Shown here piece by piece: positions 2,784-39,415 of a DNA stretch of 64,000 nucleotides. The DNA comes from Dictyostelium discoideum. Taxonomy: Eukaryota. The translations under genes and the position numbers were made by a program. The notes below the pieces were generated by a model, which saw only the letters and a program-made list of their open reading frames with translations, made no database searches and was not told the DNA's origin. The stretch spans positions 4,608,001 to 4,672,000 of the forward strand of contig CM000154.2 in NCBI GenBank assembly GCA_000004695.1, read 5' to 3'. Each line of letters opens with the position of its first letter. Within the stretch, counting starts at the first letter, position 1.

Positions 2784-3588
2784 TTAACAACAATGTCCAG
2801 GTTTTACTTCTTCAAGTAAAACAATTGCAGGTGTAGTAATTGGTGGATTTTGATTTTTATTATAATGTTTGAAAGCTAATTTAGCCGCAGCATTATATGA
2901 TTCTGTAATATTTTTAGAAAGTTTTGAAGATGTTTCAAAATAATGAACTTTATCTATAATTCCTTGATCCTCAATATTTTTACACCATTGTTCAATTCTT
3001 GCCTTTGATATTGATTTATCAGTTCTAGGAATATCACTTTTTGTACCTATTAAAATAAATGGAATACTTTCAAAACAGTACGTTTTAGTATCGTCCATCC
3101 ATTTTTCAAGACTGTCAAATGATTTTTCATTATGTATATCAAAACATAGTGTGTAACAATGTGCACCACGATAATAAGCATAACCTAATGAATGAAAACG
3201 TTCTTGACCAAATGTATCCCAAACCTAATATATTATAATTATTTTATTTTTTATTATTATTATTATTTTTTTTTTTTTTTTTTTTTTTTTTTTCAATTTA
3301 CCACTTACCATCATAGACACATGCTGATTTTCAATCATTAGTTCCTTTGAACAAAAATCAATTGAGCATGACCTATGATATATAAATTTCCCATACATAT
3401 AATTATAAAAGAGAGATGTTTTACCAACATTACTGTCTCCAAGAGTTATAACCTAAAAATAAACAAAAATAAAAAAATATAATAAAAAAAAGAAAAAAAA
3501 AAAGAAAATTAATTTTAAAAATAAATAAAAATAAGAAAAAAAAAAAAAAAAGAAATTAATATATACTTATTTACAATACCTTTAACAT
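2784..3588 (-). CDS. Rab-like small GTPase, type C. Exons are 2784-3224, 3309-3452 and 3580-3588 (MLK).
   Basis: Spliced product MLK|[15 protein letters not shown]...HVSMM|[10 protein letters not shown]...[11 protein letters not shown]...ETSSK...GHCC. G1, G3, G4 and G5 are intact, and the C-terminal CC is a Rab-type geranylgeranylation motif. Splice sites are GTATTG/GTAAGT donors and TTTTAG/TTAG acceptors. Confidence 0.65.
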
Positions 3589-3868: not shown

Positions 3869-4500
3869 CTACCACCAACAAATTCCTTTTGGTTTTTCAG
3901 GTTCAATTGAAATATTTATTGAATTTTTCTGTTTATTTTTATATTGATTTAATGCTATTTTTACTATAGTTTCATAAGCTTCAATAATGTTTGTTGATAA
4001 TTTTGCAGAAGTTTCAAAATAATGAATTTTTTCTTTTACAATACCTTGATCTTCAATTTGTTTACACCATTGTTCGATTCTTTCTTTTGAAATTGATTTT
4101 TCAGTTCTTTCAATATCACTTTTTGTACCTATTAAAACAAATGGAACATTTTCATTAAATAATGACATCCAATGATTAAGATTATTAAATGATTGTTCAT
4201 TATGAATATTAAAACAGAGTACACCACAATCTACATCTCTAAAATATATTTTACTATCATCGAATGCACTACCATGTGTATTGAAAAGCTTTTTATTATT
4301 ATTATTATCCATTATAATTTTTTTTTTTTTTTTTTAAACCAAATTGGTGCTTACTTGTAATGATACTGTTTCATTATCAATGATTATATCCTTAAAGTAA
4401 AAATCTAATGGAATTGAGTTACCCCATTGAAAAAAAGGTTCACCCTTAAAATTCTTAATAATCGATAATTTACCAAGAAAAGCAGAAAAACCTTCAAAAA
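3869..4500 (-). CDS. Rab-like paralog, type B copy 2, degenerate. Exon 2 is 3869-4288 and exon 1 runs from about 4355.
   Basis: Near-identical to 1260-1697, with the same C-terminal 90 aa ending in CWW. Exon 1 ([42 protein letters not shown]) has lost the GxxxxGK P-loop entirely. The 3' flank at 3590-3870 duplicates 1000-1260. Confidence 0.45.
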
Positions 4501-4671: not shown

Positions 4672-5403
4672 TCATTTAATTTTTTGTATTGAATTAGAAT
4701 AATTTAAAGCAAGCTTTGTAATGGTATTGAATGGCATTATAATATTTTGAGAAAGTTTTGCAGATGTTTCAAAATAATGAACTTTATCAATAATTCCTTG
4801 ACCTTCAATATTTTTACACCATTGTTCAATTCTTTCATTTGATATTGATATATCAGTTCTTGGAATATCACTTTTTGTACCTATTAAAACAAATGGTGGT
4901 AACAACTCCATATTTTCCAAACCGTTCTCTAAACATTTTGAATGAAATTCGTTCATCCATTTATTAAGATTTTTAAATGAATCTTCAAAGTGAAGATCAA
5001 AACAAAGTACACAACAATTTACATCACGATAGAAAGATTTATTTAAATTGGTGGTAAATTTTTCATGACCGGCAGTATCCCAAATATTGCATCCAACAAG
5101 TTCATTATCAACCATTATCTCTTTATAAAAGTAATCAAAAGTTGATGGATTTGTATAACTACCAAATTTTCTGCCTACAATTTCATTAAATATTGCTGTC
5201 TTTCCAGATCTATAATCACCAAGCATTATTATCAAAATAAAAAAAAAAAAAAAAAAAATGTTAAAACATATTTTAAATTAAAAATATGTTTTACTTTTAT
5301 ATAAAATAAAAATAAAAATAAAAATAAAAATAAAAATAAAAATAAAAATAAAAATAAAAATAAAAATCACGCATACCTTTATTTTCTTATTTGCTTTTTC
5401 CAT
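4672..5403 (-). CDS. Rab-like small GTPase, type A copy 2. The main exon is 4672-5235, with a possible upstream micro-exon at 5377-5403 (MEKANKKIK).
   Basis: Motifs [20 protein letters not shown] and ETSAK. A paralogous 5' micro-exon plus GTATGC donor is conserved with copy 1, but the corresponding acceptor AG is mutated to TG at 5236-5240. An internal ATG at 5224-5226 still gives [10 protein letters not shown]. Confidence 0.6.
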
Positions 5404-20086: not shown

Positions 20087-20137
<51 letters not shown>

Positions 20138-20183
20138 TATCTGAATTTTTAAATGATATTATTTTATTTATTGGTTTTAAATA

Positions 20184-23100
20184 TTATTCTTTTTCAATAC
20201 AAACTTTAACTTTGTATTGTATTTGATGAAGGATAGAATCAGAATAATCGATGGATCCAGATTTAACATTATAACAAATGAGGGTATTATTATATGCATA
20301 GTTAAATTCTACTTCTTTTGGATAACAGGCAAGTTTACTTGATGCAGAGTTGAATTCTGTGATAATAGTTTGATTGGTAATTACAATTGGCTCTACTTCG
20401 GATGGTGGAACTTCAAAGCATGCAGAATAATCTGAAGCTTTTACCAATGAATTCTTTGAGCATGATGAGTATTTATTGTAATTATAGCATTCTACATTAT
20501 TAATGAATGAATGTTCAGGTTCACCGCCATCACTAACACATTCAACAATGTTTGATTGGGTTTCACTATTTGAACAGAAAATAGTAGAATTATGATTGTA
20601 TGTATATTCGTTAAATCCATCTTTACAATAGATTGGACTATTTTGACCATAGATTATCATTGATTTTTCATTGGCATCATATTCACATTTTAATGAACTT
20701 GAAACTTTTGAAACCGTTGGAATAGAGAATTTATAAGATGCAGATTTTGAACGAACACCACAATTAATTTCAGTTCCAAAGTTGGTTGTATTACATTTAA
20801 TACCATTATTATTAGCATTAATTTGACAAGTGAATGATTTGTTGAAATTGAAACTTAAATTATTATTATCAATACATGTTACAGTTTCATTGAATTGATT
20901 ATCAATTGTAAAGATACGATCATTATGATTAATTGAGAAAAATACTGCAGAGTAAGGTGTTGAAGCAATTGATAAAAGATTGGATGTTGGTACTGGTGCT
21001 GTTGATGATGATAATAGGTTACCACCCATTGATGATTTTGTTACCACCATTGCTAAAGCTATAGTTGATACACGTTTAATACCATTCTTTGCAACCTGAG
21101 TTACAACTCTTCTTGTTACTGCTGCGAATCCAAATTGTAATGATTTCTCTAATGCTCCTGAAAATGATGCTGTAGATGCTAATATTGAACCAGATTTAGC
21201 TGCTGTTGCAGATGTTGCCAATGCTATTTGTGTAAGTGGTAAAGCAGTTGATGCTAATAATGCTGCTGCAACCAAAGCTGCTAATCCAATAACAATAAAA
21301 ATTACAATATTTGTTGGAGATTCTGGATCAACATAAGAAAAGTAATTATTAAGACTATTTAATTGACTTTGAACATTAACACGAATTGGTAAACCTTTTC
21401 CTTTACCTGGTGGTACAGTACATTTTACATTTTTAGAATCAACCCACTCCCAGTTGACACAAAGTACGCCATTAATAGAAACTGTACCATTTGACGAATT
21501 AACAGAGTTTTTCAATGATTTTGGAACAAAGTCATAACCTTTGATTGTAATAGTTTTACCACCTGAAGATGGTGCTGCATATTGTTTATTATCCAATGAT
21601 GGTGGATTATAAGAGAATGATCTTGTTTCATTTGATTTTTGTCCACCAACTAAAAGTACAACTGAATGGTTTTTACCAATACCTGCAACTGGATTAAATG
21701 AGAAACTTGTTGAATTAATCCATTTAATATCTTTATATTGAGTTTTACCATTGATTGTTATTGAATTTACTGAAACATTTTTGTTTTCTTCTTTATTATA
21801 AAAATCTTTTAATTCAGCGGGAACGAAATTGAAACCAACATATTTAATATCAGTGGCACCATCAGTTGATACTGTAATTTTATTTGTAATATTTGGTTTA
21901 TTATAAGAGAATAAAAGTTGATTTTCAGATTTTTGTTCACCAATAGTAATATTAACTTTTAGATTGGCACCGATACCAGGTGGAATAATACAACTAACAT
22001 TGGTTGAATTTATCCATTGAACTGATCCACATTCAAATGTACCTATATAAATTCTTGAAGTATTTCTCCAAGATGCAATTGTTTTATTTGAATCATAAAA
22101 TGGTGAAATAAATTCGAATGGATTGAAATTAAAACCTGTAATATTTAAATATTGTGGTTTTTGTGGAGGAGTTACACAATTTAATCTACTACAATTACCA
22201 CCATGAGTATCTGAACTATTGGCAGTTAAGAATTTGGAAAGCCATGGTAGAGAATATGAATATTTATAAGTATATCTGGCAGTGTTTGCAAGTGTAACTT
22301 GGATTGTTCTATTAGCACCAACATTTATTGGGAAACTACATAGGTAAAGATCGAAATCGGTTGAATAATATGCATATTGGGATTTCAAGTATGGACAAAT
22401 ATTTGAATAATCGATTTTACTATTTGCAATTACATCTGAAGTACAACGTTGAATTTCACAAAATGAGTCAGTGCCATCCACTGTTGCTTCTGGAATTTCT
22501 TCAACAATCGAACCTAAACCTCTACCAACTATCCAATATTGATTTATATTTGATGTATTCAAATGTTTATCATCGTAATATAATTTATCAATAATCATTG
22601 ATGGATATGTAAATTTAATCGATGCAGTTGAGGCATTCATACCTGTGTTTATTGCAAAAACATTTACAGTATAAAAACCTGGTGGTACAATAACCTCCAT
22701 AATCTTATCAGAGGTGAATTTTGTAATTTCTGCAATTTCTGAACCAAAATAGATATTTGTGCTTCCATTGAAAAAGTTTTGACCATTAATAGTTACTACA
22801 TCTCCAATTTTACCTGTTGTTTTTGATAAACTACTAATAATTACATTTTCAAATGTAAAGTAATTTACAACACCACTTTTAATATTCATTTTTATATTTT
22901 TAAAACAATAAAATGAAATATAACTAATTAATTTAATTAAAAAAAAAAAAAAAAAAAAAATTGTAAATATATTATGTTTTTAAAATTAAAAATTATTATT
23001 AAAAAAAAAATTAATTTATACATACTTTGAACCAGCACCAATTGCCTTAATATAAAATTGTGTATTTGTTAAAAATGTAATTGTATCTGTAACATTAGTT

Positions 23101-25774
23101 TCACCAATTTTTACAACCAAACCATATCTACTATCAGTTGCTTGTAAAAAGTTTTCACCAGTAACAGTAATTAATGAATTATATTTTGGATTTGTAGCAG
23201 AGTAAGTAATTTTAGTTACAGTTGGAATTGGGAATTTGAAGTAATATAATATATTTCTTGGATATAATGATTCGTAAATATTTTTGGAATATTCATTATA
23301 AATTTTAATTCTTTTATTTTGAAGACCGATAGTTAATGAACTTAATCTAAAGATAATTCTACATGTTCCGTTAGTGTATCTTTGGATGGAATTAAAACTA
23401 GCTTGACTTGAACCAACATATGCAAAAAGTGTATTGGTACTTGTTGGACAAAATCTGGCATTGACAGTAATCTCTTGTGATTTTACAGTAACGTCATCAA
23501 CAATTGGACCAATTGGACATGAATTAATGATTTTTCCACTTTGGAAATCTTGAATTGAAGATTCAATGAATGAACAAATCTTAAAATTTACAAAAACCAT
23601 TGATAAACCAAAAGATGAATTGGTTTTTGAAGGAGCGAAATAAGTATCAAAATTTGTATAACTTTTTCTGGTTGAATTGTTTTTCAATGCTAATTTAAAT
23701 AAATCAGAAGTAATTTGTTTTATATCGTCAAATGAATTCTTTGGTTTAACTTCTGTGGATGTATATGTACAAACATAATGACGAGTTGTTGAATCTACAT
23801 ATTTTGAAAGAATATTAATTTTTGAAACAACATTTGTAAGTTTTAAATATTCATAGAATTGACCTGATCTCCAATTTCCAATAATTGGATTATCAATCCA
23901 TCTTTTTTCAAAGAATTTAATAACTTTGGCAAATGTGGTAGTATTATATTTTATTAATTCATTTGGACAAACACCAATTGTTAAAAGAGTACTATTTAAA
24001 TCATTTTTAGTATTTAATAAATTTAAATCCTATTTTTTTTTATAAAAAAAAAAAAAAATAAAAAATAAATATTAATATGATATATATTTTTAATATTAAA
24101 ATAAAAATATTTTTTAAAAAAAAAAAAAAAACTTACATTTTGGGTAATACCAGTACAATTATAACGGCAATAATCTCTTGATGGACAATTTCTAATTGTT
24201 TCTGTAGTGAATGCATTTGCAAGTGTGGTTTCTAAAAAGGCACAAGTTTTGTTATTGATAGAGATAATAGTAAGACCTAATGCTGATGGACTTGATGGGT
24301 GTGGTGTGTGTGTAACCGTTAAACCTCTATCTACTTGTCTGTGAATTGATTGATTAGCAAACTTTCTAAGATCTATTGATTGATCTAAAATACTTGAAAA
24401 TGTTTTAAATTTGCCAGTGGAAGATATGTAGCTACAATAATTATTATTTGTTTTAGTGACAAATTTTGAAAGGATTTGTTTGGTAATTGTGGAATTGGTG
24501 AATAGGAGATTATAGAATTGGCCAGTAGTCCAATCATTTGGTATTTTGTTGTCATACCAATATTGTGAAAATAATGTTGATAATTGAATATCTGTGTAGT
24601 TTGATTGGAATTCACCACCACAAACGCCTCCTGAAAGAAGAACATGAGTGATTGAATTAAATGTATAAGCTCTTTGAGGTGTTCTACAGGTGTACTCACA
24701 TGGATTTTTAAGGGCTGGATTATTGGGGTAAATTTGTGAGAATGTTTTAGTGCATGCATGTTCTGAATACACCCCAATATAAATTTCTGCACTTGATTTT
24801 GATATACTATAAATACGGAATGGATATAAAGTATTACATCTTAATTGTAATGTAAACTTTCTATTTGTTGTGCCAGTATAAGTGTGTATTATATCTATTC
24901 CAGATGATTGATATCTAAATTGTTGAGATTCAACGCTACCATATGGAATGGTTAAATTCATACATGATTGATATGCAACACCTGAGATCATACATTGATG
25001 CGTGTTTCCACCCATATTAAAATAAATCTAAATAAATAAAAAAAATAAAAAAAAAATAAAAAAAAACGAATGGATTTAGTAAATTTTTAATTTTAGTTTT
25101 AATTTTTTTTTTTTTTTTTTTTTTTTTTATAAGATTTAACTTACTGTATCATATTCATATTTATATATGTAATTACCTGATGAAATACTTTAAAATAAAA
25201 TAATAAAAACGTTAATATTTGTTATTTTTTAAAGGGGAAAAAAAAATATAGAAATTATTTACTTACGTTTTGAGAGGTCTCAAATCAATATAGTTATCGA
25301 GTAATACGTTATGATAGAGAGCTGAAACAGTTTGTTGACAAGCATATTTGGATTGAATATTTAAATTGTATGTACACATTGGATTTTCACTGTATGATGT
25401 AACTTTATAATTTTCAGTTTTGTTGCATGTGAATGAAAGTTTGAGTGTTCTTTTATAACCTGATGAGGGACAATCACTATGAGTAGTAAGACCATATGAT
25501 TTGATTGATAAACTATTAGCTGAATATTGATAATATTGTGTTTTTCCAAGTGGATAAGTATTTCTATTGGAACTTAATATTTGACAAGCAAAATTATCAG
25601 CTCCACAAGAAATAGGTTGAATTCCGAAATTATGATAATAAGAAGAATCATAATTACCAAATGTTAGACCACGGTATTCAATTGAACCATTTCTTTTTAA
25701 AATAAATAAATAAAATTATTAATAAATAAAATTAAGTAATAAATAACTAATAATAAATAAATAACCAATAATAA

Positions 25775-25825
<51 letters not shown>

Positions 25826-27505
25826 TACATTGTTCTATTTTGTAATGGTGAAAAATCAAATACTTGACCATAAAAAGTACTACTGGAAGTAGGATTACTT
25901 CCAAAGTATTCATAATATGCTAACGGACATGCATTTTTGGATGATGCATAGATTGTTTGATTGCAAATAGAGTTATTAACAGTGGTTAAGACGGTGAATT
26001 CAGTATTGGAGCATCTAATATATACCTTTATCTCTGGTTTGGTTGTACAAATGGTAGGGGTAGATGATGAATTAAATGAAATTAAAATATTGTTTGATGT
26101 GTTACTACTTGCAATAAATGGTACTTTGGATACTGTTGGTTTATCAAAGAATGGAATAGTTGTTTTTCCAAGTCCTAAAATAAGACAACCATAATACTTT
26201 CCACTTAATCCTGAGAATTTATTACATACATCAACAGTACCACCACCGAAATTGAAAAGGAATCTATTGAGCTCTAGAGCTGACGAATATGGATTTGATG
26301 ATGATGTTCTTTAATAATTTTTTTTTTATCAGTAAAATAAAACGAATAAAAGAAAATAATAATAATAATAATAAAATACATACAATTTCAATGATCTTAA
26401 ATCATATTGATTGCCACCAAATAAGTATTTGTTTTCAATTGGACAAGCAAATTTAGTGGAGATTTGAACATCGTAGACACATGTTGAACTTTCCACAAAG
26501 CCTTTAATTGCATAGTTTTGAGTTGTATCACAAGTTAAAATAAAGTTACTTATTCTATGATAACCAGTTTGATTGGTACACTTGGTACTATCGATTTTTC
26601 CTGATTGGTATTGAATTGTTAAACCTTTATCAAAGAATTGGACATGACTGAATAGAGTAATACCAGTTGGATACCTTGTGCCATTGACTGAAACACATGA
26701 TTGAATTGGACCCTCACCAGCTGTAGCAGTACATAAAGTTGATGTTTCACAAAGACCAAAATAAAAAATGTTGCTACCATTTGTTGTAGTAAATTGTGAT
26801 GATCCTAAAACACTATTATAATGGAAATATTGAGATTAATTTAATTTAATTTTTTAAAAATTTAAAATAAATAGGTTAGATAATAAAATAATGATAAATT
26901 AAAATAAAAATAAAATAAAAGAATACATACTTTGAAGTTGGTGATAAATCGAAAAATCTATTTTTAGAATCTTGGAAAACACATCTATTTTTAGAATCTT
27001 TAGTATGTGGACTTTCCACTCTAGCATTTTGAATGAAATCATCGTAGTTTGTATCAGAGTATGTATAAACATAATTGTAAAGACTATAAAATGGAATGGT
27101 TTTTGGATTTCCAACTTCTACAGGTAATAATGATTGAATAGAATTAACTTGGTCTTCCAATACACCAATTGAAGCACGAGAGGATATATCGATTGTCTTT
27201 GATTGAGCAGAGGTTGAATTTGATTCGAGTGATGATGTTTTTGGTGCAATGAATTGACAATTACTTTCAAAGAAACACAAATAATTTGAATTTAACGATT
27301 GATAAATCATTGGTTTTTTATCATTATTGGCTGCATTTAATAACTCTATGAAATATGTTTTGAAATCATAAACATTTTCATTATTACTTAACACATCAAT
27401 TAAAAATGATACACTTGATTCTTTAAAACCTTCTAATTCATATAAATCATAAAAGAATGATGTTATTGAAGAGCTGTAATATGAGGCGTTACTTTTAGAT
27501 TTTCT

Positions 27506-27550
<45 letters not shown>

Positions 27551-28495
27551 GAGTTAGATATTTTCCTTTATTTTTTTAAAAAAAAAAAATGCAATAAAAA
27601 CCCAAAAATATCTTACATTAAATTTTTCAAATCATAAAAAACATTTGCATTCTCGTTATAAAGAAAAGACGAATTTGATTGTTGTTTTGTGTGGGAATTC
27701 TAAAAATAAAAAAAAAAAAAATAAAAAAATAAAAAAAAAAAAAAAAAAAATTGATGGTTAGAAAAAAGAAAAAAAAAAAAGAGGTTGGGAAGTTGTTACC
27801 TTTTTGATTGAGATTTGTAAAAAATTTAGAAAACCTTTTAAAAATGAAAGGGTTTGAGTTTGTTCGGGCTTGTTTTCAAAATCATTGTATCCATATAAAT
27901 TTTTTTCGTTTTCATTATATAACGATGGTTTTAAATTTTTAATTATTTGGTGAGAAATTGATTTATAAATATTTTCAAAATTACCATTACCCAGTTTAAT
28001 TGGAAGTGTGTTGATATTATTTAAAATTGCTACTGAATTATTAATTTTAACATTAATATCCCCAATAATTGATTTAAATATTGATAATGATTTAATTTGT
28101 TGTAACTCTTTATATAATATTATATAATTATTATTATTACTGTTTAAATAGTATCGTTGATTTGTTTGATTAAATAATAAATCAAAACTAATAGTTTTAT
28201 TATTTTCAATAATTGAAATATTATTAATTTTATCTTCAAAATATAATTTATTTGGCTTAAATATTGAATCATCAAAACTAATTATACTACTTCCATTAGT
28301 AGTTGTATTAATTTTAATTAAATCATTCTTATTTTCCAATGTTACTTTTGAATTTGGTAAATCATAATTATTAAAAAGTGATAAATAACTTATTAAAAAA
28401 TTATTTGGTTGGATTATTACCTTTTTATTTTCAATCGCACCAAAAATGGATTGAATGAAATAAAATGAAATAAATATTAATAAAATTTTTTTCAT
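20184..28495 (-). CDS. Large multi-exon type I membrane protein with a signal peptide, three or more MRH-like domains, IPT/TIG repeats, a TM segment and a Cys-rich C-terminal domain.
   Basis: Exon ORFs at 27758-28495 (signal peptide MKKILLIFISFYFIQSIFGA), 26940-27394, 26386-26828, 25826-26300, 25271-25700, 24135-25015, 23027-24030 and 20184-22875, linked by GTAAGT/GTATGT donors and AG acceptors with consistent phases. MRH signature C.Y.(L/V).I.(S/T)..AC occurs at CTYNLNIQSKYAC and CVYDVQISTKFAC. IPT-like segments ITVTGENF and NITGFNF are present. The hydrophobic segment is IVIFIVIGLAALVAAALLAS. Confidence 0.6.
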
Positions 28496-28526
28496 TTTTA
28501 TTTGTTTTTGATATCTTACTTTTTAT

Positions 28527-28539
<13 letters not shown>

Positions 28540-28606
<67 letters not shown>

Positions 28607-29081
28607 AATAAAATAAAATAAAATTAAATAAAATAAAATGTTCAAAATTTTTTAGAATAAATCATGATTGGTTTGGTATTTTTAGCATCAAAAGATATTT
28701 CAAAGAAAAAAAAAAATAAAAAAAATGAATTGATATACACCAAGATTTTGCTCGTTTTTTTTTAAAAATTTTGAAACGATATACACTAAAATATTGAACA
28801 TTCAAGAAAAAAAATTATTTTAAATAATTTTAAATAAATAAAAAAAAACAATCAATATTTTAATGTTTACTATGAAGCATTAAAAAAACGCCATCAATAT
28901 TTTAGTGTATATTGTTTAAAATTTTTTAAAAAAAAACGAGCAAAATCTTGTTTTAAATCAATTTTTTTTATTTTTTTTTTTTCTTTGAAATATCTTTTGA
29001 TGCTAAAAATACCAAACCAATCATGATTTATTCTAAAAAATTTTGAACATTTTATTTTATTTAATTTTATTTTATTTTATT

Positions 29082-29131
<50 letters not shown>
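28540..29131. repeat. Near-perfect palindrome (foldback) of about 590 bp in the divergent intergenic region.
   Basis: 28605-28707 is the exact reverse complement of 28982-29084 (103/103). The inner arms at 28708-28830 and 28861-28980 are imperfectly complementary around a loop near 28845. The flanks are poly(A) at 28540-28604 and poly(T) at 29085-29131. Confidence 0.85.
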
Positions 29132-29142
<11 letters not shown>

Positions 29143-29183
29143 GCAAGAAACGATTAATTAAATAATTAAATAAATATTAAAGA

Positions 29184-31849
<2,666 letters not shown>

Positions 31850-32150
31850 AAAATTAATAATCAAAAAAAAAAACACTGTTTTTAAAAAAAAAAATAATAA
31901 AAAAAAAAATCTAAAAAATTATTGTGCGTTTTTAGCAAATTAATCATAAAAAAAAAAATTAAAAAAATTCACCCAAGTCGAACAAAAAAAAAATAAAAAA
32001 AATGAAAAAAGGGTTTAAAATATTGAAAAACTTTCTAAGTTAATTATTATGAATATTTATTTGTTTTTAATTTTAAAAAATTTAAAACTACACAATAAAA
32101 ATTTTTATACTAAAATTTCTTTGAAAATAAAAAAAAATTTATTTATTTTA

Positions 32151-32216
<66 letters not shown>

Positions 32217-32232
32217 AGTTTTATTATTTATT

Positions 32233-32391
32233 TTATAAACAAATTACCTTTGGATGAAAGGAACAACTCAAACAAATTTTTAATTTTTTAGGATATCCTG
32301 GGCATGGTTGGCATGGTGTAGCACCCCTTCTTTTTTGGCTGGTGCAATTGCTATTGAGTTTGTGATTACAATATAGTTTGATTGAGTCCAT
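32233..32391 (-). CDS. Candidate small Cys-rich ORF of 52 aa (MDSIKLYCNHKLNSNCTSQKRRGATPCQPCPGYPKKLKICLSCSFHPKVICL).
   Basis: ATG-initiated ORF in an otherwise non-coding interval, locally GC-richer than its surroundings. It contains a CxxC-type Cys pattern, and the RRxxPCxPxCxxCxG segment resembles the C-terminus of the ORF at 62841-63197. Confidence 0.25.
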   Translation of the reverse strand: MDSIKLYCNHKLNSNCTSQKRRGATPCQPCPGYPKKLKICLSCSFHPKVICL

Positions 32392-32949
32392 TATAAAATT
32401 GAGGTATGTTTAAATATATAAACGAAAATGATATTAATAAATATTAAATAAATAATAAATAAATAAAATAAATATGAAAAGAAAAAAAAAATAATAGATA
32501 AATAAAATATGAGTGAATAAAATAATTAAAGTTAAAAAAAAAAAAAATCTATTTAAATACTTAAAATATTTCATTGCAACCGAGTTAATATATTTTTGAT
32601 CAAAGATTTTGTTTTTATTTTATTTTATTTTTCTTTTTTTAATTTATTATAATTTGATTTTTTTTTTTTAATTTTCTTTTTATTTGAAAAAAAGGGGAAA
32701 TGTTTTACAGTTAAAAAAAAAAAAATTCACTCATTATTTTAACCAACTATAAATAAAATGAAATACAATTGTTCATTTATAAAAACTATGGCCATTATAA
32801 TATTAAACCATCACATCTATATTTTTGGTTAAAATCAAATGATCATTTTTTATTTTAAATAAAAAAAACCACTTTTAGTTTATAATAATAAAAACAATTT
32901 AAAAAACATAATTAATAAAACCAAAATAATAATATAATTAATTATACAT

Positions 32950-33235
32950 ATAATAGTAATAGAAATAGAAATATTAATATCAATAGTTATAGCAATAGCT
33001 ATATAGTAGTAATGGTAATAGTAATAATAGTAATAATAGTAATAGCAATAGCATTATAGTAGTAATAATAGTAATAATAGTAATAACAGTAATAGCAAGA
33101 GCAATATAGTAATAATAGTAATAATAGTAATAACAGTAATAGCAATAGCAATATAGTAGTAATAATAGTAACAATAGTGATAGCAATAGCAATATAGTAG
33201 TAATAATAGTATTAATAGCAATAATATAATGAAAC
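32950..33235. repeat. Minisatellite of degenerate 12/24-nt AGTAATAATAGT / AGCAATAGCAAT units.
   Basis: Visible tandem periodicity 'agtaataatagtaataacagtaatagcaatagcaatat' repeated at least 8 times. The ORF at 32980-33255 is its translation artefact. Confidence 0.75.
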
Positions 33236-33314
33236 CTAAAAGAATGAATGCTCATTTTCTTCTAGAGGTATTATATTTTATTATTTTACATTGAATATAA
33301 ATATTTGTACTAAA

Positions 33315-33345
<31 letters not shown>

Positions 33346-33479
33346 AATTTTTTTTTTTTAATATTTGTCTTTCTTTCCATCCTTTCCACAATTAACATTA
33401 TAAGGTAATTATATAACTATTTATTAATTTTTTATTTATTTTTTATTACAAAATAAATAATTAAAACTAATAAAGTTTT

Positions 33480-33790
33480 TTATTAGAATTAAGGATATCT
33501 AAAGACGTTGGACCAATTGGAGAGCCGGTTTATGTTACTAATAGCACCAGCATTTCTGAGACCTACATGGGTTTTTCACCATCTGTTTGGATGATTGTTT
33601 GTATAAAATCCGTGATAAAACCAATAATACAGAAGACTTCTTTCAATATGTTAGAGAACTTTTGGAAAGTGGATTTTGCAAGCCTGGTTTATTATTGGTA
33701 ATGGACAATGCTCCAATTCACGGTGGTATCGTGGCTTTAAATGCACTATTTGAATTGTTTAATCAATATTCGGTTCAATTGATATTTCTG
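33480..33790 (+). mobile_element. Remnant of a DDE transposase of the Tc1/mariner/IS630 superfamily.
   Basis: The translated peptide GFCKPGLLLVMDNAPIHGGIVALNALFELFNQYSVQLIFL carries the (L)VMDNAPIH motif typical of the DDE_3 third catalytic region. The upstream reading frame is broken by stops, and no terminal inverted repeats are evident. Confidence 0.4.
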
Positions 33791-33819
33791 AAAAAAAAAG
33801 AAATCAATACCAAAAGGTG

Positions 33820-33851
<32 letters not shown>

Positions 33852-33959
33852 ATCACCCATATGGTATCTGTATTGTTTATGGATTGATTTAAAATTTGTG
33901 GAAAATCTTTGACCTTAAGATTCTATTTTAATTTCCAAAAAAAAAGTAATATCAAATTG

Positions 33960-34310
33960 AATTTTTAAATGACAAATGATAGTATTTTATTTTTTAATTG
34001 TAAATTATTCTTTTTCAATACAAACTTTAACTAAATAAATCAATTTCATTTAAAGTTTGTAATATTGAACAAAACAAATGGGAATTAAAAAATGAATTTA
34101 ATGTTGATGATTTTTTAAAAAATGAATTATTAAAGTCATATTGACTCTTCATGTGATTTAATAATAAAAAACCAGTCTCTGGCTCATTACCAAAATTTGG
34201 CTTTTTTTTTATCCAATATTTTTGAACCAAAATGGTATGAATAAATTGTACTATTATACTGATTTTAACCTTGAATAAATTGGATTGGAGCTGATACAAA
34301 ACCATTTAAA
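33960..34310. pseudogene. Mosaic of gene fragments: the 3' end of the MRH/IPT gene plus N- and C-terminal fragments of the multigene family.
   Basis: 33960-34030 resembles 20150-20215 ('ttattctttttcaatacaaactttaact'). 34040-34140 on the plus strand encodes KVCNIEQNKWELKNEFNVDDFLKNELLK, the N-terminus of the family. 34200-34300 resembles the minus-strand C-terminal region of the family. Confidence 0.45.
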
Positions 34311-35589: not shown

Positions 35590-36192
35590 TCAATTACCAC
35601 CAACTGTAATGCTATTGGATGGATTCAATCAAAAATTAACACCAGGTATATTACCGGATGGTGTTGAATCATTGTATTTGGGTAATATTAAACAAAAATT
35701 AATTATTGGCTCAATTCCTAATACTGTAACTCATGTCTTTTTAAAAGATGGATCAATTGAATATTATCACCAGGTATATTACCAGATGGTGTTGAATCGT
35801 TGTATTTAGGTGATATTAAACATCAATTAATAATTTGTTCAATTCCTAATACTGTAACTTATGTCTCTTTAAAAGATGGATTCAATCAAAAATTAATAAC
35901 AGGTATATTGCCAGATGGTATTGAATGGTTGGGTTTAGGTGACATAAAACAAGAATTAATAATTGGTTCAATTCCTAATACTGTAAAGAGTGTCTCTTTA
36001 AAAGATGGATTCAATCAAATATTATCACCAGGTATATTACCAGATGGTGTTGAATCGTTGGGTTTAGGTGATATAAAACATGAATTAATTATTGGTTCAA
36101 TTCCCAGTACTGTAAAGGAAGTATATGTTTCCAATGGCTTTAAACATCAAATTGAACCTTATTTTTCAGAAAATGTAAACATAATTAAATAG
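35590..36192 (+). pseudogene. FNIP-repeat protein gene, frameshifted and lacking an evident start.
   Basis: Four or five FNIP repeats (GFNQKLTPGILPDGVESLYLGNIKQKLIIGSIPNTVTHVFLKDG). The frames 35609-35809 and 35800-36192 differ because of a small deletion at about 35757-35770 ('ggatcaattgaatattatcacc' versus 'ggattcaatcaaatattatcacc'). Confidence 0.5.
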
Positions 36193-36528
36193 AAAAATAA
36201 TATTTGGTTAAATTAAACAATTTCAATAAAAAAGATAATAAAAACAAAATTATAACTTCACAACTATATAATATTCCTTTTTTTAATAATTTCTTTTTTT
36301 AACCATCATCTGTTGAATAATAAAAAAATAAGCAAACTAAATAATATGTTGGATTTTAAACATTTTAAACTACTATATAAAGAAATAACTGGTGCCACAA
36401 CAAAAACACCAAAAAAAGAGGCAACGTTGAATACAATTTTAGAAAATCAAGAATATTCAAAAAATACATAGGTTAATCGATCTAAAAAAAAAGAAAAAAA
36501 AAAGGTCTAATTAAATTTAATTTTATTT

Positions 36529-37722
36529 TCATAAAAGTTTAGCAATAATAAACCAATCTAATGATGGTATTAATTTTGAATTATTATCTAAAAGTTTTGA
36601 ACCGAAATGACCTGAATAAATTATACTATTATATTCTTGATCTAAATCTTTGAGTAAAACTGGACATGATACAAATCCATTTGGAATTGAATCAGCATTA
36701 ACTCTTGGCCATGGAAAATCCTCTTCTTCCTCAAAAGAATATGATTCTGTATATTCATCATCATTATATTTACCATCATTATCGAATACACAAAAAGTAG
36801 CTAACCAGCCTGTTAAAACATTGCCACCAGATTGTTCTCTATAATCTACTATCTGATTCCACCAAGTTGTATCAGGATTCCCATTTACAGAATCAATGAA
36901 TTTATCAATCACTGGTAATAAATAAACTAACCATTTTTTAATTTCACCATTTTTATTATCGAATTGAATTAATTTTTCAACTCTTTCTTTTAAATTTATC
37001 CAATCATTAATTTCACCTAATAATGTTACTTCTGAAAGGCCACAATATGTTTTAAAAACAAAATTAAAATATTTCTTCATTGTTGACATTAATGCAATTG
37101 AAAATACAACTTTATCAGATTCTGTCGTAGTTGTAAAATCTGGTATAATTAAATCTTTAATTGATGGATCTTTAATATTTGATTGAATTTGATTTGACAT
37201 TTCAATGGTTAATTTATCAAAAGGTGCTTCTAATATTGGATATACTGTCTCAACTATTAATTCTTTTTTACCAGTAAAATCTACAAATTTTTCACGTAAT
37301 TCTTCAGAGTTTTTATTTACGTAGAATGATAGTTGAGTTAATATTGCCATCCAGATATTATCAGGACGTAGTACTAAATGATTGTGATTATTATAACTTT
37401 CCCAAGCAGAGTATACGAAACTATTTGAACCAAAACATGCTAAATCATCATTAATAATACTTGTTTGCAATACTTTAACTCCTATATCAATTCCATTTTT
37501 TAATGATGGATCCATTGTTTTAAAAGATTCAGCATTTAAAAAATCATTAACTTTAAATTTACCATTAATTTCCCATTTATTTTGCTCAATATTACAAACT
37601 TTAAATGAAATTGATTTATTAATTTCATCTCTTTTAATTTTAGAATTGTATTTAATTACTTTTGAATCATTGTTAACAAAACCACTATGACTTCTTACTC
37701 TATAATTAAAAATAGTATTCAT
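36529..37722 (-). CDS. Uncharacterised multigene-family protein, copy 2.
   Basis: 397-aa intronless ORF sharing the conserved core with 16322-17596. Confidence 0.7.
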   Translation of the reverse strand: MNTIFNYRVRSHSGFVNNDSKVIKYNSKIKRDEINKSISFKVCNIEQNKWEINGKFKVNDFLNAESFKTMDPSLKNGIDIGVKVLQTSIINDDLACFGSNSFVYSAWESYNNHNHLVLRPDNIWMAILTQLSFYVNKNSEELREKFVDFTGKKELIVETVYPILEAPFDKLTIEMSNQIQSNIKDPSIKDLIIPDFTTTTESDKVVFSIALMSTMKKYFNFVFKTYCGLSEVTLLGEINDWINLKERVEKLIQFDNKNGEIKKWLVYLLPVIDKFIDSVNGNPDTTWWNQIVDYREQSGGNVLTGWLATFCVFDNDGKYNDDEYTESYSFEEEEDFPWPRVNADSIPNGFVSCPVLLKDLDQEYNSIIYSGHFGSKLLDNNSKLIPSLDWFIIAKLL

Positions 37723-38015: not shown

Positions 38016-38191
38016 GTAATGATAGTAATTCCCAAAATAATGGTATTAATTTCAAATTATTATCAATCTATGACATCATTTTATTTTGGCATTTAATTAG
38101 ATAAAACTTTAATAAAAATAGGATTAAATAAGTGTACACTTTAATTTTTTTTTTTATTTTTTAATAAGTTGGAATACTGGGAATTTTCATT

Positions 38192-39415
38192 TTATAAAAG
38201 TTTGGCAATAATAAACCAATCTAATGAAGGTATTAATTTTGAATTATTATCTAAAAGTTTTGAACCGAAATGACCTGAATAAATTGTACTATTATATTGA
38301 ATTTCACCTTGAATTAATTTGATTGGAGCTGATATAAAACCATTTGGAATTGAATCACCATTAACTCTAGGCCATTTATATTTTTTATCTTTATTACTCC
38401 ACCATAATATTAAATTATCATTGTATTTACCATCGATATCGAACACGCAAAAAGTAGCTAACCAACCTGTTAAAATCGATCCACCAGATGATGATTTATA
38501 ATCAACCATCTGATTCCACCAAGTTGTATCAGGATTCCCATTTACAGAATCAATGAATTTATCAATCACTGGTAATAAATAAACTAACCATTTTTTAATT
38601 TCACAATCTTTATTATCGAATTGAATTAATTTTTCAACTCTTTCTTTTAAATTTATCCAATCATTAATTTCACCTAATAATGTTACTTCTGGAAGACCAC
38701 AAGATGACATGCATTGATAATCGAAATATTTCTTCATTGTTGACATTAACGCAATTGAAAATACAACTTTATCAGATTCTGTTGTAGTTGTAAAATCTGG
38801 TATAATTAAATCTTTAATTGATGGATCTTTAATATTTGATTGAATTCGATTTGACATTTCAATTACAACTTCATCAAAAGGTGCTTCTAATATCGGATAA
38901 TCAGTCTCAACTATTAATTCTTTTTTACCAGTAAAATCTACAAATTTTTCACGTAATTCTTCAGAGTTTTTATTTATGTAGAATGATAGTTGAGTTAATA
39001 TTGCCATCCAGATATTATCAGGACGTAATACTAAATGATTATGATTATTATAACTTTCCCAAGCAGAGTATATAAAACTATTTGAACCACAACCAATATT
39101 TATTAAATCATCACCATCACCATCTGTAATACTTGTTTTTAAAACTTTATATTGTTCAGCATCATCACCTGTTTTTTCATTTTCCAAGTTTATAAATTCT
39201 TCAATACAAAATTTATCTTTTATTCCCCATGGACTTTTTTCAACTTCACAAACTTTAAATGTAATTGATTTATTATTTTCATCTCTTTTAATTGTTGAAT
39301 CATATTCAATTAATTTATATTTTGAATTATAAAATTCATTATCTTGATCATTTTCTTTGTTTTCATTATTTTTTTTTAATTTTTTGCTTGAAAACTTGGA
39401 AAATAATTTTTTCAT
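38192..39415 (-). CDS. Uncharacterised multigene-family protein, copy 3.
   Basis: 407-aa intronless ORF with the same conserved core and a divergent N-terminus. Confidence 0.7.
   Translation of the reverse strand: MKKLFSKFSSKKLKKNNENKENDQDNEFYNSKYKLIEYDSTIKRDENNKSITFKVCEVEKSPWGIKDKFCIEEFINLENEKTGDDAEQYKVLKTSITDGDGDDLINIGCGSNSFIYSAWESYNNHNHLVLRPDNIWMAILTQLSFYINKNSEELREKFVDFTGKKELIVETDYPILEAPFDEVVIEMSNRIQSNIKDPSIKDLIIPDFTTTTESDKVVFSIALMSTMKKYFDYQCMSSCGLPEVTLLGEINDWINLKERVEKLIQFDNKDCEIKKWLVYLLPVIDKFIDSVNGNPDTTWWNQMVDYKSSSGGSILTGWLATFCVFDIDGKYNDNLILWWSNKDKKYKWPRVNGDSIPNGFISAPIKLIQGEIQYNSTIYSGHFGSKLLDNNSKLIPSLDWFIIAKLL

Follow-up and report, generated by a model that had tools for sequence, protein, structure and literature searches.

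A near-perfect palindrome occupies the interval between two divergent genes in a 64,000-nt stretch of Dictyostelium discoideum DNA (22.4% G+C; hereafter, the window). How did such a structure come to lie there, and is it a mobile element, a functional cruciform or hairpin, or a rearrangement of recent date? An initial annotation had left these readings side by side, and they are weighed here against the window itself and homologous loci of the same and related species.

Anatomy of the palindrome and its flanking genes

The window was placed on chromosome 5 of D. discoideum AX4 because the exons of its plus-strand gene are identical to those of DDB_G0290837. The open reading frame (ORF) starting at 29184 on the plus strand encodes a DNase_II Pfam domain (E = 1.2e-26). 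Intron 1 of DDB_G0290837 (29997-30080, 84 nt) is in frame and stop-free, so that the ORF (29184-30554) reads through it and encodes 28 residues more than the annotated protein, with which the product agrees apart from this intron. The minus-strand gene, starting at 28495, encodes IPT/TIG domains according to Pfam and is annotated with ~2450 aa in other assemblies; we refer to it as the TIG gene. The domain calls of the initial annotation (DNase II-like and IPT) were thus confirmed by Pfam, except that the MRH domain it had proposed was not detected in the six exon-sized ORFs of the TIG gene. Protein searches with the 245-aa N-terminal exon of the TIG gene gave no match at E <= 1e-10, and the 931-aa exon gave a single, irrelevant match among the matches listed. 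The start codons lie where they had been reported, at 28495 (minus) and 29184 (plus), with 688 bp between them. This head-to-head arrangement with starts less than 1 kb apart is that of a bidirectional promoter, and the pair is conserved in the related loci L003-L010 (described below).

The palindrome fills this interval, in agreement with the initial annotation, and consists of (28534-29131, in order) a run of 71 A, the left arm, 96 nt of unique sequence at the centre, the right arm, and a run of 48 T; the flanking poly(A) and poly(T) had likewise been described. The features of the interval are as follows.

28496-28533, minus strand: native 5' leader of the TIG gene (38 nt); on the sense strand a T-run, AAAAAAAATAAAAAGTAAGATATC..., then the ATG at 28495
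28534-28604, no strand: poly(A)71, read as T71 in the sense of the TIG gene; outer junction of the proposed inverted duplication
28605-28723, minus strand: left arm, outer part; putative inverted copy of the DNase II proximal promoter, with (TTTTA)n-TTGG microsatellite and conserved core
28665-28689, minus strand: left-arm copy of the 25-nt core GATGCTAAAAATACCAAACCAATCA, the sole minus-oriented core in the window
28724-28797, minus strand: left arm, inner part; putative inverted copies of two ~44-bp upstream repeat units
28769-28790, left arm: intact copy of the consensus 22-nt motif TTTAGTGTATATCGTTTCAAAA
28792-28797, left arm: its last 6 nt, the inner-junction microhomology TATTGA
28798-28892/3, no strand: unique central spacer; ancestral sequence that follows the TIG-side poly(A), ACATTCAAGAAAAAAAATTATTTTAAAT...
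28893-28985, plus strand: right arm, inner part; upstream repeat units native to the DNase II gene; TCAATA at the start (28893-28898)
28901-28922, plus strand: right-arm copy of the 22-nt motif, decayed, with 3 mismatches
28986-29083, plus strand: right arm, outer part; DDB_G0290837 proximal promoter in its native place; core at 28999-29023, followed by the (TTTTA)n-TTGG microsatellite
29084-29131, plus strand: poly(T)48, directly upstream of the presumed DNase II transcription start; proposed template for the outer part of the poly(A)
29132-29183, plus strand: native 5' leader of DDB_G0290837 (52 nt); A11-GCAAGAAACGATTAA..., then the ATG at 29184

An inverted-repeat search revealed outer arms of 169 nt (28557-28725 and 28963-29131), which are 99% complementary and 237 nt apart, and inner arms of 92 nt (28706-28797 and 28894-28985), which are 88% complementary and 96 nt apart. 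Within the complex sequence, 28605-28707 matches 28981-29083 exactly (103/103). An exact match of this length had been claimed initially, and its identity held on re-alignment; the right arm had been placed at 28982-29084, one nucleotide too far downstream, and is inexact in that register. Overall, the left arm (28605-28797) is 94% identical to the reverse complement of 28893-29083. The complete list of differences between the arms is (i) a homopolymer difference, A11 versus T12, at 28706-28716 and 28971-28982; (ii) a 4-nt indel at 28724-28727; and (iii) 6 substitutions, at 28735, 28738, 28740, 28769, 28773, and 28778. The substitutions and the 4-nt indel all fall in the inner 74-92 nt.

The symmetry centre of the palindrome (28844) is 4.5 bp off the midpoint of the two start codons. 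Of the 32 runs of A or T in the window that reach 25 nt, its flanking A71 and T48 are the longest except for a T53 and a T50 elsewhere. The single-strand DNA fold of the palindrome has a free energy of -224.8 kcal/mol, compared with -85.3 +/- 3.6 kcal/mol for shuffled sequences (z = -39), and the palindrome is far beyond chance. No other inverted repeat of comparable length and identity exists in the 64 kb, and no further copy of the complex arm sequence was found within the window.

The same structure is present in a second, independently sequenced D. discoideum assembly (GCA_054883475.1, L001), and an assembly artefact, that is, a collapsed or chimeric inverted duplication, was thereby rejected. 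The palindrome of L001 is identical except for shorter homopolymers and the changes CC>C and GG>G at the outer ends of the arms. Across 16.7 kb, L001 and the window differ by 4 mismatches and 84 gap columns, and every mismatch adjoins a homopolymer; L001 is essentially the AX4 genotype, resequenced independently.

Several other features were observed in the window. Downstream of the DNase II-like coding region lies an AT-rich segment of ~1.9 kb (31918-33820, 18.7% G+C), which is found only in the AX4-type sequences (the window and L001) and is absent from L002, L005, and L008; the gene model of the newer assembly runs through it (896 aa, compared with 759 aa in AX4). A tandem repeat with a period of ~129 bp and 87% identity occupies 35618-36117, and the neighbouring DUF4419 genes (36519-37662 and 38182-39316) are duplicates with 83% identity. 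At the left end of the window, a sequence of ~100-120 nt occurs 6 times with 79-93% identity, one copy being inverted (256-374, 1407-1528, 2310-2431, 2937-3055, 4016-4137, and 4771-4889); it resembles a conserved part of an exon from a tandem gene family.

Related loci and the origin of the left arm

Eleven related loci (L001-L011, ~170 kb of related sequence) were fetched for comparison. In addition to L001, they include (i) the AX4-type chromosome 1 paralog DDB_G0267616 (L002) and the second chromosome 5 pair of the AX4 type, DDB_G0291033 (L006); (ii) loci from four divergent lineages assigned to D. discoideum or cf. discoideum, which we designate by the locus-tag prefixes of their assemblies as ACTFIW (L005), ACTFIY (L009, with two DNase genes), ACTFIZ (two pairs, L008 and L003), and ACTFIR (L004); and (iii) loci of D. 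citrinum (L007), D. dimigraforme (L010), and D. firmibasis (L011). Ten homologous intergenic regions were compared, one each from L002, L006, ACTFIW, ACTFIR, D. citrinum, and D. dimigraforme and two each from ACTFIY and ACTFIZ. The DNase II-like gene is a member of a small, fast-evolving family, and most of the fetched homologous loci show it in head-to-head arrangement with a large TIG gene.

In the ten homologous regions, the arm or its core, where it can be detected, is present in one orientation only, facing the DNase gene, and the only inverted repeats in these regions are low-complexity pairings of poly(A) with poly(T) (70-88%). Nine of the 10 other loci, from 8 assemblies, have the 25-nt core on the plus strand upstream of their DNase II-like gene, with 0-3 mismatches; it occurs twice in L008 and L010 and is absent from L011. 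Across the window and the 11 loci, the minus-oriented core exists only in the window and L001. The core contains CCAAT-like and TATA-like stretches and, in the sequences examined, is confined to the upstream regions of DNase II-like genes, which makes it a candidate family-specific promoter element.

The TIG-flanked loci share a common layout. Its TIG half is composed of the ATG, the leader, a poly(A) of 15-35 nt, C-TATTGA(AC), and ~95 nt of unique sequence; its DNase half is composed of TCAATA, one to four ~44-bp units, a core region of ~65 nt, (TTTTA)n, poly(T), the leader, and the ATG. The ancestral form of this layout is taken to have had two or more of the ~44-bp units. The palindrome centre (28798-28893) has 98% identity in L002, 87% in L005, and 89% in L004, and it always directly follows poly(A)-C-TATTGA. 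The TIG leader (28496-28533) has 95-97% identity with its counterparts in L003, L004, L005, L006, L008, and L009 and lies outside the duplication; the DNase leader (29132-29183) is 88-94% identical in L002-L005. Because the homologous loci carry a single arm in the DNase sense together with this family layout, the right arm can be taken as the native promoter of DDB_G0290837 and the left arm as the novelty.

Other kinds of variation were observed among the related loci. The tandem ~44-bp units, which carry motifs similar to TTTAGTGTATATCGTTTCAAAA, number 1 to 4 among paralogs and species (L006 7620-7800; window 28723-28790 and 28851-28922) and may be repeated transcription-factor sites. In D. 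dimigraforme, the core occurs twice in the same orientation (at 2367 and 2826) within an 888-nt intergenic region (L010 2113-3000); the promoter has been duplicated there directly, unlike the inverted duplication of AX4. The ACTFIR and ACTFIW assemblies (L004 and L005), although labelled D. discoideum, are 5-9% diverged from the AX4-type L006 across syntenic genes, which is far above expectation within one species.

The minus-strand TIG and plus-strand DNase II genes together form a duplicated module (window 20122-34039; L005, L008, L006, and L001). In ACTFIZ (L008) and ACTFIW (L005), a second TIG gene, apparently that of pair b, stands in tandem immediately downstream of pair a. The two pairs of the AX4-type assembly are separated by ~333 kb and have opposite orientations (CM142511.1, 4.726-4.743 Mb forward and 5.059-5.078 Mb reversed), which suggests a large inversion with one breakpoint just downstream of the palindrome locus, near window position 34039.

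The chromosome 1 paralog DDB_G0267616 is flanked by truncated TIG fragments with 93-96% identity (L002 3282-4640 and 7646-8922, corresponding to window 25922-27484 and 20122-21277). The TIG 5' end, its leader, and the poly(A) have been deleted there, and a 414-aa gene is annotated over the TIG remnant. At the deletion junction, an internal TIG fragment ending in GTAATATGA (window ...27484) is joined to TTGAACATTC (window 28795 onward), so that the breakpoint is <=3 nt from the inner junction of the left arm. It may mark a fragile spot beside the poly(A) or the loss of an arm from a copy that was once palindromic.

The relatives also preserve the sequence into which the left arm was placed. The insertion point reads A(n)-C-TATTGA in L005, L003, and L006 and A(n)-CTATTAA or A(n)-CTATTTA in L008 and L009, and relatives continue as A(n)-C-TATTGA-ACATTC. 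The inner end of the right arm, read as its reverse complement, is ...CACTAAAA-TATTGA-TGGCG. In AX4 the sequence reads A71-CCAAT...CACTAAAA-TATTGA-ACATTC, that is to say, the inverted copy is placed exactly between the TIG-side poly(A) and TATTGA. Because the left arm sits exactly there, both junctions fall on pre-existing short inverted repeats: the outer one on poly(A)/poly(T) and the inner one on TATTGA (28792-28797) and TCAATA (28893-28898). No target-site duplication surrounds the palindrome, whose ends lie inside homopolymers. The equivalent of 28534-28604 in relatives is A15-A35, and its length varies between the two palindrome-bearing assemblies; the A71 is best read as the ancestral A15-35 tract fused with a copied reverse complement of the poly(T).

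Three properties of an inverted duplication are thus combined at this locus: the additional DNA is the reverse complement of nearby sequence, relatives carry the ancestral state, and both junctions lie at inverted microhomology. The palindrome is very probably an AX4-lineage-specific inverted duplication of the resident DDB_G0290837 promoter, and the anatomy of its junctions points to a template switch in two steps. During replication in the AX4 lineage, a nascent strand that ended in poly(A) would have switched template and paired with the poly(T) ~300 nt away; the switched strand would then have copied the promoter backwards (leftward) for ~190 nt, up to TCAATA; and it would have returned at the complementary TATTGA. 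The expected product (A71, an inverted promoter copy, TATTGA, an unchanged centre, the original promoter, and T48) is the observed sequence. Palindromic junctions are known to arise in this way, by template switching at short inverted repeats (PMC10766186; PMC7999016). The recent origin that the initial annotation had offered as one option fits such a lineage-specific event. Since ACTFIW, the closest lineage without the palindrome, is 7-13% diverged, the event is only loosely dated.

Double-strand-break repair could have reached the same end product, either by fold-back priming at the poly(A)/poly(T) or by an insertion, ectopic or templated, from the promoter of a paralog, for example the chromosome 1 copy. 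Break-induced fold-back insertions and inverted duplications are documented (PMC11724301, PMC10622511), and the rearrangement breakpoint of the chromosome 1 copy, <=3 nt from the same site, suggests a fragile spot beside the poly(A). The left arm is also nearer to the chromosome 1 paralog (4 of 95 inner positions differ) than the right arm is (10 of 92). This extra similarity is explained by derived changes in the right arm, the outgroup L005 agreeing with the left arm and the chromosome 1 copy, and the (TTTTA)n-TTGG outer end is common to both arms of the palindrome, whereas the chromosome 1 copy has a 10-nt deletion there. We consider break repair unlikely and infer replicative template switching, not break-induced fold-back repair, as the probable source of the left arm, although template switching at a fork and break-induced fold-back synthesis would leave an identical sequence outcome.

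Promoter consequences and divergence of the arms

Poly-T tracts directly upstream of transcription start sites are common in D. discoideum genes (PMC6161686). On their sense strands, both genes have a T-run, an A-run, and AAAG(T/C)AAGA in all loci. In the window, each gene is now preceded, on its own sense strand, by the same module of core, (TTTTA)n, and long poly(T). The region would thus act as a symmetric divergent promoter that faces both genes, and the bidirectional regulatory element envisaged in the initial annotation has its counterpart in a palindrome that is part of this divergent promoter region. A literature search on the gene identifiers returned only DDB_G0290839, in a DnmA-knockout table, and the supplements of the papers contained no data on DDB_G0290837 or its neighbours.

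The arms have not diverged evenly. Substitutions number 0 of 98 positions in the outer part and 6 of 86 in the inner part (6-8 differences in ~90 nt), a nominally significant contrast (Fisher p = 0.009). Every pairwise comparison, those with single-copy homologs included, shows a core that evolves 3-4 times more slowly than the inner region; for example, the core and the inner region differ at 2/65 and 7/80 positions from ACTFIW and at 3/63 and 24/88 from ACTFIY. Because this slow evolution of the core is family-wide, the perfect outer and imperfect inner arms need no special mechanism. Rate heterogeneity probably explains most of the contrast; gene conversion between the arms is possible and is not required.

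Within the inner region, the left arm retains ancestral states common to the chromosome 1 paralog and L005. Four of the 6 substituted sites are G or C in the left arm, the chromosome 1 copy, and L005 and are A or T in the right arm. With the latter two as references, the right (original) arm has four derived GC>AT changes and has lost TTCA, and the left arm has one derived change; the 22-nt consensus motif is perfect in the left copy (28769-28790) and carries its 3 mismatches in the right copy (28901-28922). The asymmetry amounts to about 7 changes on the right and 1 on the left (binomial p about 0.07), and the inner arms differ from each other as much as the same segment differs between AX4 and ACTFIW. 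A simple, recent, single event with a uniform clock would not predict divergence of this size and asymmetry. Conversion of the right inner arm from another paralog was rejected, the right-arm-specific states being present in none of the fetched promoters. The pattern may reflect the retention of both orientation-dependent proximal modules, together with the decay of one set of distal elements that are redundant and orientation-independent; neutral drift is an adequate alternative, given the slower evolution of the core across the family.

A more far-reaching reading is co-option, in which the inverted copy would have brought the large IPT/TIG gene under the regulatory programme of the adjacent DNase II-like gene. 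The proximal modules would then be kept identical by selection, arm-to-arm conversion, or both, and the redundant distal elements would be in the course of being partitioned. Inward-facing upstream transcription from both cores could, in addition, give convergent or hairpin RNA acting in trans on three paralogous promoters or genes. We regard this reading as unlikely.

The palindrome could also be a selected structure, either a cruciform regulatory switch or a source of small RNA from a hairpin or convergent transcripts, with arms kept identical by gene conversion. Three observations are in line with this: the 98 nt of outer complex sequence, including a fast-evolving microsatellite, show zero differences, whereas the inner 92 nt show 6-8; the hairpin fold is highly stable (z = -39); and the differences between the two assemblies at the outer ends of the arms (CC>C and GG>G) are symmetrical. 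However, (i) the core is slow in all homologs, single-copy ones included, and most of the outer identity is expected without conversion; (ii) the CC/GG difference adjoins long homopolymers, like the four wider mismatches between the assemblies, and is likely a strand-symmetric sequencing error; (iii) both promoters point outward, and a hairpin is not expected inside either mRNA; and (iv) the 96-nt spacer disfavours cruciform extrusion (PMC7999016). A structure maintained by selection is thus very improbable.

The spacer also bears on the argument of the initial annotation that a palindrome of this length is unstable and that its preservation suggests function. According to a review (PMC7999016), the fragility of inverted repeats in eukaryotes is much lower once the spacer reaches about 50 nt. 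Because the arms are separated by a unique 96-nt spacer, with 237 nt between the perfect parts, the argument is weak, and the palindrome is expected to be much less prone to extrusion and breakage than had been assumed. A known RNA family was rejected as well: an Rfam search gave 0 matches at E <= 1. The sequences given in the supplement of PMC6161686 for miRNA_can_D2, the one chromosome 5 (DDB0232432) candidate miRNA checked, do not occur in the window.

A foldback or MITE-type transposable element inserted between the genes, as initially suggested, is hardly credible: although the palindrome is AT-rich, intergenic, and ~600 bp long with long terminal inverted arms, and D. discoideum has small repetitive elements, such as thug-S, that yield hairpin miRNAs (PMC6161686), the homologous loci are not empty sites but keep the right arm and the centre and miss only the left arm, the arm core lies upstream of the DNase II-like gene in all other fetched loci but L011 and in several species, the ends lie inside homopolymers without a target-site duplication, and no copies exist beyond the promoters of DNase II-like paralogs in the 64-kb window and the ~170 kb of the 11 loci. 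The element was rejected on the single-arm homologs; since relatives lack only one arm, that arm is a resident promoter of the DNase II-like family and not a mobile unit.

Significance and comparison with known systems

The inverted duplication of the DDB_G0290837 promoter is an unusually legible natural case of the birth of a sizeable palindrome. The ancestral state, both switch points, and the microhomologies are still readable because paralogs and sister lineages keep the pre-event sequence. Long poly(dA:dT) tracts that flank Dictyostelium promoters can act as inverted repeats that seed rearrangements. The locus is, moreover, a natural experiment in which the promoter of one gene was set, correctly oriented, before its divergent neighbour, and DDB_G0291033 with its TIG partner, a pair that did not undergo the event, provides a control in the same genome.

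Four known systems resemble the AX4 palindrome to different degrees. Large palindromes maintained by gene conversion, such as the ampliconic ones of sex chromosomes, likewise have near-identical arms around a unique spacer. They span kilobases to megabases and carry genes in their arms, whereas the AX4 palindrome spans hundreds of base pairs and carries a promoter; its arm identity comes largely from slow evolution of the core and does not require conversion. MITEs and foldback elements, including thug-S of Dictyostelium, are also short, AT-rich, and intergenic with long inverted arms; the palindrome differs from them in that it is not dispersed (window and 11 loci), has no target-site duplication, and has relatives that retain one arm and the centre.

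Bidirectional promoters share with the AX4 pair the head-to-head arrangement, and the pairing of TIG and DNase II-like genes is conserved across paralogs and species. The AX4 locus goes beyond the shared elements of usual bidirectional promoters in that it holds a literal inverted copy of the promoter of one gene, set before the other gene.

The closest counterparts are the inverted duplications formed by template switching (quasipalindrome-to-palindrome mutations, FoSTeS/MMBIR, and ODIRA-type junctions). As at the AX4 locus, (i) the new DNA is the reverse complement of adjacent sequence; (ii) the junctions lie at short inverted repeats or microhomology, with no target-site duplication (model in PMC10766186); and (iii) the product is an interrupted palindrome in which the sequence between the inner repeats becomes the spacer. 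The AX4 event is small (~190 nt copied, plus homopolymer) and is fixed in a germline-equivalent lineage, whereas members of this class are copy-number variants or amplicons of kilobases to megabases. It involves no triplication or origin, and one of its junctions lies in an unusually long homopolymer. The palindrome is a fresh example of a known mechanism and represents no new class of element or mechanism.
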